From the sequence record MW883059: a stretch of DNA of 64,000 nt; one strand, given 5' to 3'. The notes beneath the pieces are model-generated. The model saw only the letters and a program-made list of their open reading frames with translations, was not told the origin of the DNA and searched no databases. The position numbers and the translations under genes are program-made. The DNA comes from Escherichia phage vB_EcoM_SYGD1. Below are positions 10,551-16,943 of this stretch, piece after piece. How positions within the stretch are numbered: position 1 is the first letter of the stretch; every line of letters begins with the position of its first letter.

Positions 10551-11042
10551 TTATTCCCAATAATCGAGAGCGAGAGTTACTTCAAATGTTTGGATTTCAT
10601 TGTTTGAATCCCAATCTAACTGAAGTTCACCCACGTTAGTAGGCCACAGGCCTTTAATTTCGACTTCTTTTGTTACAGTTTTAGCGTCACGAGCATATTG
10701 GCGTACAATAGCGCTCTTTTTATACTCTGCTGGTTTTCCACCAGTAATTTCGTTTCCTTGCCCAGCAGCAATGCTTTGCCAGTCAACAAACTTCTGGCGT
10801 GCATCATGCGCCTCATCATTCATTACTGTAATAGTCCAGTCATCGAATGTACGATCGCCTGCTACGTTAATTTTACGGTTCATAAATCCGACTGGAATTT
10901 TTTCTACAATACCAGCTGGTAAAGCAGTGGCTTTACATTGAAACGTAAAATTTTGTCCAAGATAAGAAATTTCTACTTGGAATAAGTTAGGTCGAGCAAA
11001 ATCACCAGATTCAAACGCTCGTGTTACATCATCTACAAACAT
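10551..11042 (-). CDS. 19: gp19 tail tube protein
   Basis: ORF track 163 aa; synteny and length as T4 gp19. Confidence 0.9.
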   Translation of the reverse strand: MFVDDVTRAFESGDFARPNLFQVEISYLGQNFTFQCKATALPAGIVEKIPVGFMNRKINVAGDRTFDDWTITVMNDEAHDARQKFVDWQSIAAGQGNEITGGKPAEYKKSAIVRQYARDAKTVTKEVEIKGLWPTNVGELQLDWDSNNEIQTFEVTLALDYWE

Positions 11043-11056
11043 ATTAGCCTCTGTAG

Positions 11057-11064
11057 TATTTATA
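11057..11064 (-). promoter_or_regulatory. Late promoter TATAAATA for gene 19
   Basis: plus-strand tatttata 15 bp upstream of gene 19 ATG; GAGG SD between. Confidence 0.5.
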
Positions 11065-11115
11065 TCCCTATGTTTAACCTAGGGCATATAGAATTAAAGA
11101 ATTAAGGATATAGTG

Positions 11116-11123
11116 TATTTATA
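11116..11123 (-). promoter_or_regulatory. Second late promoter-like TATAAATA between the HNH gene and gene 19
   Basis: plus-strand tatttata immediately after hairpin GGCCTG-CCGAAA-CAGGCC. Confidence 0.4.
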
Positions 11124-11149
11124 TGGCCTGCCGAAACAGGCCTTTAGAA

Positions 11150-11707
11150 TCATTCTAGTAAATCCCAAAGATCTACGCTATTTCTTTTTGACTTTTCTCG
11201 GTTAGATTCCCAAGTGATTATTTCTAAATTTTTTACGCTTGCTATAATTTCCGGCGGAATTAAATTATCAAATCCATATTTGATAGATACTTTATGATCG
11301 AGTTGGTAAGCACCTTCTACACCGCACACTCCTATTTTATCAGCATTCGGCCATTTTGACCAAATTTTTCTTATTTTAGCTGACTTAGTTATAGAATGAA
11401 CTCTACTAGCATATAATGCAAACTCTTTTCTTTTACCAGTCCATCGAGGATGTTTATCGCCTCTTTGCCATGGTCTGCTTATTCCGGATTGAACTTCCGA
11501 ATTTTTAATAGCAACTTGTTTAATGCTGCATTTTCTACACGCATGTGTGGGTGTTCTATTTAAAAGCTGAATGCTTCTACTAAATTTAATACCGCACAAA
11601 TCACATTTAGCGTCAACTATTTTATTACTATTCTTTGGCATTAATTCTATTGGAACAGATACTGTATCATGATATGATACTTCATATCCTAGAATTGCCG
11701 ACCACAT
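11150..11707 (-). CDS. HNH-family homing endonuclease (free-standing, inserted between genes 18 and 19)
   Basis: ORF track 11150..11794 begins with TTG and reads through a hairpin; first ATG is at 11707. Cys pairs (CDLCG, CRKCS) then HNH-like DHKVS...N...NLEIITWESNREK. Confidence 0.55.
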   Translation of the reverse strand: MWSAILGYEVSYHDTVSVPIELMPKNSNKIVDAKCDLCGIKFSRSIQLLNRTPTHACRKCSIKQVAIKNSEVQSGISRPWQRGDKHPRWTGKRKEFALYASRVHSITKSAKIRKIWSKWPNADKIGVCGVEGAYQLDHKVSIKYGFDNLIPPEIIASVKNLEIITWESNREKSKRNSVDLWDLLE

Positions 11708-11770
11708 TTTTGAATGATTTCTTGGTTTTATTGTAACAAACTTAGAAATAATCACTTGTTTCCTCGAGAA

Positions 11771-11788
11771 TAGGGGCCGAAGCCCCAC
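11771..11788 (-). terminator. Hairpin (terminator-like) directly after gene 18
   Basis: GGGGC-CGAA-GCCCC; minus-strand downstream tract tattctc is only weakly U-rich. Confidence 0.4.
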
Positions 11789-11794
11789 AATCAA

Positions 11795-13774
11795 TTAACC
11801 TGCAAGACCAGTTAACTCATCGAAATCTGCACCAGTAGCAGTTGCGACGAAATTAAGTTGGATATAATTTATACTACGAGCCGGTTGGATGTAGAATGTT
11901 GCAACAAACTCATTTCTATCAATTACTGACGGAGTGTTATTTGTTGTATCGCAAACTACACGATATTCATAAATTCCACCGAGAGCTTTAATTCCCTGTA
12001 AGTATTGGGCAGTTTCTGTGCGGAATGATGAACGAGTAAACGCGTTGTTTAATTCGAACAAACGATATTTTGAACTACGTCCGATATTCGTTTTCAACAT
12101 ATTAAACAGACGACGAACGTTAATACGATCAAATGGAGAAGGAACAGAAGTAGCTGTTTTATCACCATACAATACGTAACCATCACCACCTGTACCAGTT
12201 ACTGGGTTGATAGCTTCTTGATATAAACGGTCGCGCTGAGCTTGGCGAGTTTCAATAGCAAGTTTAATAACGTTAAGAATCTGGCCGCGATTATAACCAG
12301 CTGGAGACATCCAAGTCTGAGAAACGTTATCGGTTCTTGCACATAAACCGGCAATATCAGCTGCTAATGGAACCCAGCGATTGACATCATTATATTTGTC
12401 ATACTGATATTTGTAGTTACCATCAATTGCTGCGTAGGTTGAACTGATATTAAAGTTATTATCAGTGTATGAACCTGTTGCGGTTCTCCAATTGACTAAG
12501 TTATCAACAGCGCGAGTTACAGGAATTCCAACTACAGTTTCGCGCGGTGGTGAGCACAATACTAAGCAATCCTGGCGAGCATCCCCAATTGAAACGACGT
12601 GTTTTTGGACAGTAGATGCTGTTTCTAAAGATTCGCCGGCACAAGAACCCGCAATAAACAACTGAACGTCAACAGATTCGCGGTCAGCAAAGAAGTCCCA
12701 AGCTTCCATCAAATCTCCTGCTGTTACTTCAGCATTTGATGATAATCCACCAGACAGAGTTAAAATTCCAGAGAATCCTTCTGGCCAATTTTGTGCAGTT
12801 GCAAAAATATATTCTGAACCGCCTTTTGCGAAAAAGTCATCAATATAGATGTTACTGTCATAAATGTCTTTTTCACCATGCTTTGTTGAAAGAACAATAC
12901 TTTGAACAATAGCATCATTACGGCGAACTATAATAGCGTATTGTGAATCAGTTTGTGGTCCATATCCAAACACTGCCTTAGCAGTAGATGCGCGTGTTCC
13001 GCCACCTGGATAAATTGGGAGTAATGCAGAAGCACCTTTTGCGTAGTCAGCTTTAGATACGATTTCAATTTCGATTTTATCGCCCAACTCGCCTGGATAA
13101 AGAGCTACTACTCCTGGAATTCCATATTTTTCGAGATTTGCTTGAAATTCAACCGCTGTCATAGCAGCTTCGGCATTTTCAATCTCAGCTAATAAAATAC
13201 CGGAATCAGTAATGATTTTTCCAAGAGTTATTACTGCAGCTAAACCAGATGAAGACGAAGAAATTTCCGCGGTCCAATTAGAACCTAACGCTGGATACTC
13301 ACCGACTTCTTTCGCTTTAGCGATAATTTTTGCAGTAGGAATATTAATTTTCTTAATTTTTCCATCAGCATCTACTTCGGTAATTTTACCTTCCGTTTCA
13401 ATGTCTTCTGAAACATACTTAACTGTGATTTTATCTCCAACCGCGTAGTTACTACCTGGGGTAGAAATAGTGTATTCAATATTACCAGCAATCGGAGATG
13501 AGTTTTTAGCGGTATCTCTATCGACAGCACGCACAACTCGCAAATCATTTCCGTATTGTAAGAAATTCATTGCAGACATAAAATAGTCAGCAGTTTCAGC
13601 TGTAGGTTGACCAAAAGTATTAACTAAATCTACTTCATTTGTAACCTGTTTGATCTGAAAAGCAGGACCCCACTGGAATTTACCGGCCAAAGCTGCTGTA
13701 CCAGTAGAGTTATTAACCACGGTGCTTTGAACCGTAGTTTCTTTGAGCTCAATGCCCGGAGATAATAAAGTCAT
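11795..13774 (-). CDS. 18: gp18 contractile tail sheath protein
   Basis: ORF track 659 aa; length and N-terminus MTLLSPGIELKETT as T4 gp18. Confidence 0.9.
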   Translation of the reverse strand: MTLLSPGIELKETTVQSTVVNNSTGTAALAGKFQWGPAFQIKQVTNEVDLVNTFGQPTAETADYFMSAMNFLQYGNDLRVVRAVDRDTAKNSSPIAGNIEYTISTPGSNYAVGDKITVKYVSEDIETEGKITEVDADGKIKKINIPTAKIIAKAKEVGEYPALGSNWTAEISSSSSGLAAVITLGKIITDSGILLAEIENAEAAMTAVEFQANLEKYGIPGVVALYPGELGDKIEIEIVSKADYAKGASALLPIYPGGGTRASTAKAVFGYGPQTDSQYAIIVRRNDAIVQSIVLSTKHGEKDIYDSNIYIDDFFAKGGSEYIFATAQNWPEGFSGILTLSGGLSSNAEVTAGDLMEAWDFFADRESVDVQLFIAGSCAGESLETASTVQKHVVSIGDARQDCLVLCSPPRETVVGIPVTRAVDNLVNWRTATGSYTDNNFNISSTYAAIDGNYKYQYDKYNDVNRWVPLAADIAGLCARTDNVSQTWMSPAGYNRGQILNVIKLAIETRQAQRDRLYQEAINPVTGTGGDGYVLYGDKTATSVPSPFDRINVRRLFNMLKTNIGRSSKYRLFELNNAFTRSSFRTETAQYLQGIKALGGIYEYRVVCDTTNNTPSVIDRNEFVATFYIQPARSINYIQLNFVATATGADFDELTGLAG

Positions 13775-13802: not shown

Positions 13803-16943
<3,141 letters not shown>

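Follow-up and report, generated by a model that had tools for sequence, protein, structure and literature searches.

A probable free-standing homing-endonuclease-like gene of a divergent HNH family at the tail sheath/tail tube junction of T4-like phages

In phage T4 the genes for the tail sheath (gp18) and the tail tube (gp19) are adjacent, with a spacer of 116 nucleotides (nt) between them. In Escherichia phage vB_EcoM_SYGD1 (record MW883059, of which a stretch of 64,000 nt, here called the window, was analyzed) an additional open reading frame (ORF) stands between the same two genes, and the question is what this ORF encodes and whether it is a mobile element. A first-pass annotation, made from the letters of the window alone, had proposed an HNH homing endonuclease inserted between two genes that are neighbors in T4. 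The position holds: the ORF listing and Pfam give the minus-strand order gp18, ORF, gp19, gp20, the tail genes being recognized by sheath domains and by PF06841, and T4 shows the adjacency. The window comes from a T6-like Tequatrovirus, 99.2% identical to phage JE01 across the region. On the sequence comparisons set out below, we consider the ORF to be probably a free-standing homing-endonuclease-like gene of a divergent HNH (His-Me finger) family. A wider proposition, on which our judgment is evenly balanced, is that PHROG 5104 (the family to which the ORF belongs) and its relatives make up an unrecognized, very large family of HNH-like homing endonucleases that holds the gp18/gp19 junction across Straboviridae and beyond, hopping between genera together with a recoded 3′ piece of gp18, and that is represented in Tequatrovirus by two competing alleles with swapped DNA-recognition halves.

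Homologues of the protein were collected (46), and an alignment of 43 family sequences, 30–68% identical, was used to define its conserved features. The two Cys pairs pointed out in the first pass, CDLC (residues 51/54, counted from the GTG start) and CRKC (73/76), are invariant or nearly so, with C54 invariant and C51, C73 and C76 conserved in at least 90% of the sequences; the N-terminal half that holds them weakly matches the DUF4379 treble-clef zinc finger in 15 of the 43 members (best E 8e-4). Across residues ~110–201 the invariant positions are Q151, D153, H154, S157, G161, N176, L177, W182, N185, R186, and K188, and the pattern YQLDHKVS resembles the “DVDHIVPQS” of the Cas9 HNH domain. 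In an AlphaFold2 (AF2) model calculated from the 43-sequence alignment (pLDDT 91.3), D153-H154 is placed at a strand end, N176 starts a second strand and N185 falls in the next helix. The predicted C-terminal domain has the beta-beta-alpha-metal fold of the HNH/His-Me superfamily, and D153, H154, N176, and N185 would provide the expected catalytic His after an Asp, the structural Asn and the metal-ligand Asn/His.

No curated HNH profile in Pfam or NCBIfam matches the protein, and HNH_4 is matched by one of the 43 members only (E=0.078). A sequence-profile search of the PDB returned zinc fingers and no HNH, and the Pfam, NCBIfam, and PDB-sequence searches taken together, with the single protein as with the family profile, gave weak zinc-finger matches and no HNH; Foldseek against the PDB gave nothing significant. 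Because no sequence profile recognizes the domain and the Foldseek search of the PDB was empty, we use the label “divergent HNH-like”; that the C-terminal domain is a nuclease domain of this kind is moderately well supported by the predicted structure. No Pfam model covers the PHROG 5104 family, the nuclease domain of which occurs in more than 6,500 clusters at 50% identity: a HMMER scan with the family profile recovered 6541 representatives of such clusters at E<=1e-3. In many of them the match is limited to the C-terminal domain, and some are fused to helix-turn-helix repeats or to DUF7487. Homing endonucleases typically have this modular, “beads on a string” construction, in which a nuclease domain is joined to varied DNA-binding modules. 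If the protein were a catalytically dead DNA binder that has retained an HNH-like fold, for example a regulator, this would account for the lack of an HNH profile match and for the conserved zinc finger, but the putative catalytic residues (D-H, N, and N) do not vary among sequences as far apart as those of the alignment, and the HNH-like domain is the constant module, the DNA-binding modules being the variable ones; we regard this explanation as improbable.

Comparison of the 18–19 junction among related phages, recommended in the first pass as the way to find an empty site, revealed a T4-type empty site in which ACGGTGC stands where the window has 643 nt. Among ~501 Tequatrovirus records with the junction, 69 carry a T6-type gene like that of the window and 48 carry a second, RB3-type gene, and ~384 (~77%, T4 included) are empty, the gene being thus present or absent at one precise site among close relatives (117 occupied versus ~384 empty). 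The first pass had held that its proposal would fall if all relatives carried the gene, and most do not; its view of an optional, nuclease-encoding and apparently selfish gene at the junction is supported.

The two Tequatrovirus alleles are near base-for-base alike in the leader and in the last ~85 codons, and their flanks are ~97% identical. The C-terminal halves of the proteins share 77% of their amino acids, the N-terminal halves 28%, and the RB3-type N-terminal half is 51–57% identical to those of Gelderlandvirus STP4-a, Jiaodavirus PKO111, Shewanella phage Thanatos-2 and a further locus, L029. With flanks so alike, this relationship speaks for horizontal movement. The DNA-binding module is in this respect interchangeable, as it is in homing endonucleases, and the zinc finger together with the allelic swap of the N-terminal half point to a presumed sequence-specific recognition of DNA. 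The same two features speak against a packaging-type HNH protein, an idea suggested by the large terminase and the portal in the neighborhood; moreover, T4-like phages package by the headful, and the 77% of Tequatrovirus genomes that are empty, T4 among them, package their DNA without the gene. We rejected this explanation on account of the gene’s absence from most relatives and rate it as extremely improbable. As observations on the records themselves, an intact RB3-type ORF of 205 amino acids lies unannotated in the GenBank records of RB6, RB5, RB7, RB9, and RB10, and the records MG010123.1 (“Staphylococcus phage SAJK-IND,” 32 kb) and OR584013.1 (“Pseudomonas phage PsgM02F”) hold Tequatrovirus sequence 97–99.7% identical to coliphages; they are probably mislabeled or contaminated, or else the host claim is unusual.

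The family is not confined to Tequatrovirus. A tblastn search (E<=1e-3) found it in 242 phage records, and homologues 35–66% identical occupy the same site in many other genera. In every context examined (PKO111, AbTZA1, STP4-a, Thanatos-2, phiM12, KMB20, and the Dhakavirus UP19) the gene lies directly 3′ of gp18. The site is shared by homologues in at least 10 other lineages, and occupancy is sporadic within seven groups for which close relatives were sampled; outside Tequatrovirus it is sporadic in six other groups for which a close endonuclease-less relative was sampled. In Sinorhizobium phage phiM12 (locus L007) the family member follows gp18 and the next gene encodes a NosD-like domain protein and not gp19, so that the association is with the 3′ end of gp18 and not with gp19. 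Enterobacter phage KMB20 (Karamvirus; L111:1201-2602) has two diverged tandem copies of 200 and 230 amino acids between its sheath and tube genes, the second matching the family profile at 99.9% probability; here the same junction is occupied twice.

Searching IMG/VR for exact matches to the hairpin native to the intergenic region gave only 5 loci; GenBank records were therefore sampled one by one and a gp19 profile search was run on IMG/VR, which provided an unbiased sample of 79 T4-like loci. Eight of these carry the gene, all eight between gp18 and gp19. The nearest sampled locus without the endonuclease is a close relative for six of the eight carriers (88–97% identity across the final 900 nt of gp18); it is farther off for L039 (88% by the same measure) and for L051 (75%). 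The head scaffolding gene of Salmonella phage STP4-a is followed, where the prohead protease would be expected, by a gene for an “intron-like DNA endonuclease” (L006:6617 onward); this is a further endonuclease insertion within that late-gene block.

The first pass had seen the layout of a recent insertion, and on this point the data disagree. Synonymous divergence among T6-type copies is 2–11% (mean ~0.07) with a ratio of nonsynonymous to synonymous divergence (pN/pS) of 0.05, and diverged homologues stand at the same site elsewhere. For gp18 and gp19 in the same genomes the synonymous divergence (pS) is 0.15–0.16 and pN/pS 0.03–0.04, the synonymous divergence of the allele being half that of its flanks; the allele’s pN/pS lies close to the 0.02–0.04 of these two genes. 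By these measures the gene is strongly constrained and no fresh arrival, yet younger than the genes around it, a pattern that fits an allele which has spread across backgrounds. Decay occurs as well: in Escherichia phage Pu-Krd-SF1 (L093:2246-2851) codon 89 is changed from CAA to TAA and an 88-amino-acid coding sequence is annotated; the copy is decaying. Phage S16 has a 106-amino-acid protein, 59% identical over 108 aligned columns, a possible remnant.

The genomes that carry the endonuclease gene have in common a recoded patch within the last 90 nt of gp18. In an alignment of 22 genomes (7 T6-type, 4 RB3-type, 11 empty) nucleotide diversity in the 40-nt window that marks the patch (Table 1) is 0.195, the highest of 221 windows (mean 0.031, standard deviation 0.027); one haplotype of the patch is found in all seven T6-type genomes and another in all four RB3-type genomes. 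Past ~100 nt, markers are shuffled irrespective of the gene, and the right flank is invariant. The codons for P-A-R-S-I-N-Y-I-x-L-N-F are also recoded in two independent pairs of loci, L029 versus L032 and L044 versus L045. Within the final 120 nt of gp18 the first pair differs at 28 positions, against 3 in the adjoining 780 nt, and the second pair at 22. The I-N codons read ATA AAT in 17 of 22 carriers and in 10 of 53 non-carriers (Fisher p = 3e-6, a test which ignores phylogeny), and this recoding occurs in seven separate carrier lineages. The patch could be a co-conversion tract, a cleavage-resistant version of the target, or both.

Several points weigh against the gene being a homing endonuclease. 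Five carrier lineages (L020, L030, L039, L051, and L076) lack the ATA-AAT recoding, and 6 of the 11 empty Tequatrovirus sites have a carrier-like gp18 patch, so that the patch is neither necessary nor sufficient; the association with ATA AAT is, as said, calculated with no account of phylogeny. The right-hand junction is without a donor-derived tract, and the site is a replacement of 7 nt by 643 nt, not a clean insertion. In the literature searched, no cleavage, nicking or inheritance experiment on any family member was found, and the gene names T6ORF160, gp19.1 and PHROG 5104 yielded nothing relevant. Lastly, strong purifying selection and strict positional conservation would fit a useful accessory gene that is inherited vertically.

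The latter reading deserves to be spelled out: an ancestral accessory gene of T4-like phages, passed on vertically and repeatedly lost without ever being mobile, the nuclease of which serves the phage, for example by destroying or shutting out the DNA of competing phages or of the host, or in late DNA processing. It would explain why the gene is always found in the same place, directly 3′ of gp18, in very distant genera, why its pN/pS is as low as that of structural genes, and why synonymous divergence among the Tequatrovirus copies reaches 11%. Yet occupancy is only ~10–23% and sporadic among close relatives, and dozens of clean losses would therefore be needed. Nor would such a history be expected to leave two alleles with unrelated N-terminal halves in near-identical backgrounds, one of them closer to the genes of other genera, or an allele younger than its flanks at synonymous sites, or a recoded gp18 patch tightly linked to the gene in three lineages. 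We consider vertical inheritance unlikely.

If the gene is a homing endonuclease, its cycle may be pictured as follows. Transcription would be late and weak, reading on from the late promoter of gene 18 through the hairpin at the head of the insert, and the gene would be translated from its own Shine-Dalgarno sequence (SD) and GTG. In a mixed infection the enzyme would nick or cut the allele that lacks the endonuclease, within or close to the conserved 3′ terminus of gp18, a candidate target being the codons for S-I-N-Y-I (ATT AAC TAC ATT in T4). Recombinational repair off the carrier genome would then copy the cassette and some ~40–120 nt of adjoining gp18 into the recipient, and carrier genomes would be shielded by synonymous recoding of the target stretch (ATA AAT TAT). 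The same family has taken up this junction in many T4-like genera and would move between them.

The extent and the start of the gene could be settled by comparison among the carriers. The interval 11042-11795 given to it at first is too wide, and is corrected to the 201-codon reading frame of Table 1. The ORF lister began at TTG 11794, immediately 3′ of the gp18 stop codon (214 amino acids); this extension had already been suspected of being an artefact, and it is one, because ECML-134 and ECO07P1 have intact ORFs with no in-frame start 5′ of the GTG. ATG 11707, also named in the first pass, is indeed the first ATG, but as a start it would drop 16 conserved residues including the first predicted strand. 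GTG 11755 is the start annotated by the depositors of JE01, T6, VEc20, JK08, and JoYop, and in ECML-134 the annotated start is shifted from it by one nt owing to an indel; it aligns with the ATG of the homologues in AbTZA1, phiM12 and Thanatos-2 and with a GTG in PKO111 and STP4-a, and at this codon the family proteins start M-I-I-S/T-K. The GAGG SD is kept in 11 of 11 T6-type and RB3-type loci examined. We take GTG 11755, and neither TTG 11794 nor ATG 11707, as the start. The first pass had suggested that expression may depend on read-through; with a conserved SD and GTG of its own, the gene does not need translational read-through. The match to PHROG 5104 (E=8.7e-82) runs from residue 14 to 213 of the 214-amino-acid ORF against profile positions 1–209 of 228, which again favors the GTG; the annotation of that family is “unknown function.” This match, the 46 homologues and the low pN/pS mark the ORF as a genuine coding sequence under constraint. 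Further upstream, at the base of the hairpin, positions 11788-11790 read GTG in the window and an in-frame ATG in T6, VEc20, JK08, JoYop, and ZCEC15; the ATG of RB6 and HP3.1 keeps this frame and is displaced by one nt toward the gp18 stop. These codons explain a database form of 212 amino acids (P0001) and, in RB6, an ORF of 216; the codon at 11788-11790 is not a conserved start, as it is AAG in ECML-134 and ECO07P1.

Table 1. Features at the gp18/gp19 junction of the window.
Feature	Position	Strand	Basis or remark
gp18, tail sheath	11795..13774	-	Pfam sheath domains
Recoded, near purely synonymous gp18 3′ patch, core ATA AAT TAT at 11864-11872	11841..11880	-	Nucleotide diversity
Segment absent from T4-type genomes	11151..11793	-	643 nt replacing T4 ACGGTGC (7 nt); hairpin, SD and ORF
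UUCG-loop GC hairpin GGGGC TTCG GCCCC (GGGGCTTCGGCCCC), just past the gp18 stop	11773..11786	-	T4 empty site without hairpin
Shine-Dalgarno GAGG, 6 nt 5′ of the GTG start	11762..11765	-	Read from sequence
Coding sequence, HNH-like endonuclease	11150..11755	-	201 amino acids, 606 nt, GTG start, TGA stop; PHROG 5104
Four-Cys zinc finger (C51, C54, C73, C76) in N-terminal putative DNA-binding half (residues 1 to ~95)	11528..11605	-	Cys conservation
Putative HNH/His-Me finger core: D153-H154 (strand), N176 (second strand), N185-R186-K188 (helix)	11192..11299	-	
Native post-gene-18 hairpin GGCCTG TTTCGG CAGGCC, outside the insert	11125..11142	-	Identical in T4, RB6 and the window
Two native T4 late-promoter motifs TATAAATA 5′ of gene 19	11116-11123, 11057-11064	-	Motif search; identical in T4 empty site
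gp19, tail tube	10551..11042	-	PF06841

Alignments of the window with T4 and RB6, and of the 22 genomes, define an insert that starts one base past the gp18 stop and ends within its own stop codon. They show a compact cassette in which the GC hairpin is followed by the SD and by the 201-codon ORF with its GTG start; on one side it adjoins the gp18 stop codon and on the other the native intergenic region of gp18/gp19, with an exact fit. The hairpin after gene 18 noticed in the first pass is present, but since the T4 empty site has none it is part of the insert; it is probably a 3′ stabilizer or attenuator of gene 18 mRNA, and a scan for intrinsic terminators did not score GGGGCTTCGGCCCC as a terminator. 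An identical hairpin stands 5′ of the homologue in Shewanella phage Thanatos-2, and a similar one, GGGCCTTCGGGCCC, 5′ of that in STP4-a, which suggests that the hairpin moves along with the gene or else with the gp18 3′ end. RNA folding around the start, with an SD-sequestering hairpin as in mobE in mind, gave only the UUCG hairpin 5′ of the SD, which leaves the SD free; the stability of the region as a whole is unremarkable (z = -0.87).

The two late promoters downstream, which the first pass had credited with restoring gene 19 expression past the insertion, are where it placed them, but restore nothing: like the downstream hairpin they are identical in the T4 empty site, and therefore native and not compensatory; the gp19 SD too is identical in T4. 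A motif search found no TATAAATA within the insert, the nearest 5′ motif lying at 13803-13810 before gene 18, and because of this we infer that the gene is probably transcribed by read-through from that late promoter. A sigma-70 and terminator scan of the minus strand gave nothing meaningful.

Among T4-like phages, free-standing homing endonucleases are drivers of local gene conversion, of marker exclusion and of mosaicism, and to our knowledge only a handful of them (Seg, Mob, Hef) have been tested. The gene described here is an uncharacterized member of a kind that is familiar from such phages. Phage T6 has it, as T6ORF160, as do over 240 genomes on deposit; it also corresponds to the gene annotated “gp19.1.” Records label it “hypothetical,” “putative head morphogenesis protein” (T6 RefSeq, SF2-1), “holin” (ZCEC14), “type II restriction endonuclease” (Roth19) or “HNH endonuclease” (Ptacy1496); head morphogenesis, holin and restriction endonuclease are wrong, and annotation gains the GTG start and the HNH-like assignment. 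If active, the protein would add a new HNH subfamily to the free-standing homing endonucleases. Homing would also account for a hypervariable synonymous patch, the 40 nt in which a sheath gene conserved elsewhere varies most, and would offer a testable intronless homing model, T6 versus T4, with a predicted target ATT AAC TAC AT in gp18.

Given the numerous homing endonucleases of T-even phages, the question of whether the gene belongs to a described group can be addressed by comparison. T4, like most of its close relatives, carries mob genes, and MobE targets nrdB. The tblastn search matched essentially carriers only, leaving the ~384 endonuclease-less Tequatroviruses, T4 included, unmatched; these record counts leave no room for mob-carrying endonuclease-less Tequatroviruses, and there is accordingly no detectable sequence similarity to Mob at E<=1e-3. 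The obvious analogues are nevertheless the free-standing endonucleases of T4, Mob (HNH) and Seg (GIY-YIG) (PMC2988022). Like MobA–MobE, the gene is free-standing, intergenic, optional and located beside a conserved essential gene in T-even phages, and it pairs an HNH-type nuclease with a DNA-binding module, from which nicking, recombinational repair and co-conversion would be expected (PMC2988022). It differs from them in its site and in that the HNH domain of Mob proteins is N-terminal, whereas the HNH-like domain here is C-terminal; with the domain order reversed and no sequence similarity, membership of the T4 Mob family was rejected.

I-TevIII acts as a dimer that makes double-strand breaks. 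With I-HmuI and I-TevIII the protein has in common an H-N-N style active site and a context of essential phage genes, and with I-TevIII the combination of a zinc finger and an HNH domain (PMC2988022); those enzymes are intron-encoded, unlike the free-standing gene here, and the Pfam HNH models miss the present protein. The Hef-like enzymes are Vsr-like (PMC3239194), and for the free-standing Hef-like gene F-LimVIII of phage LIMEstone1 the tail tube gene is given as the one downstream (PMC3296691, Table 1), so that another nuclease family is found beside the tail tube gene in a T4-related phage. A Hef-like (EDxHD, Vsr-like) identity was rejected for our protein, which has neither the EDxHD motif nor a Vsr-like fold, as was the IPA-HNH type (ICP1-like, AP2-associated), the architecture of which, an N-terminal HNH and a C-terminal AP2 domain, differs (PMC10055350), our protein having no AP2 match. 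The best structural matches to the predicted C-terminal domain are the nicking endonucleases Gme HNH (4h9d) and GVE2 HNH (5h0o). SegF and SegG, known for intronless homing with localized marker exclusion, leave a similar signature: presence or absence of the gene in close relatives and a short, highly divergent co-converted tract in the neighboring gene (PMC2993671, refs 53 and 54 therein). Those are GIY-YIG nucleases with cleavage and exclusion shown by experiment, whereas for the gene at the gp18/gp19 junction both are proposed.

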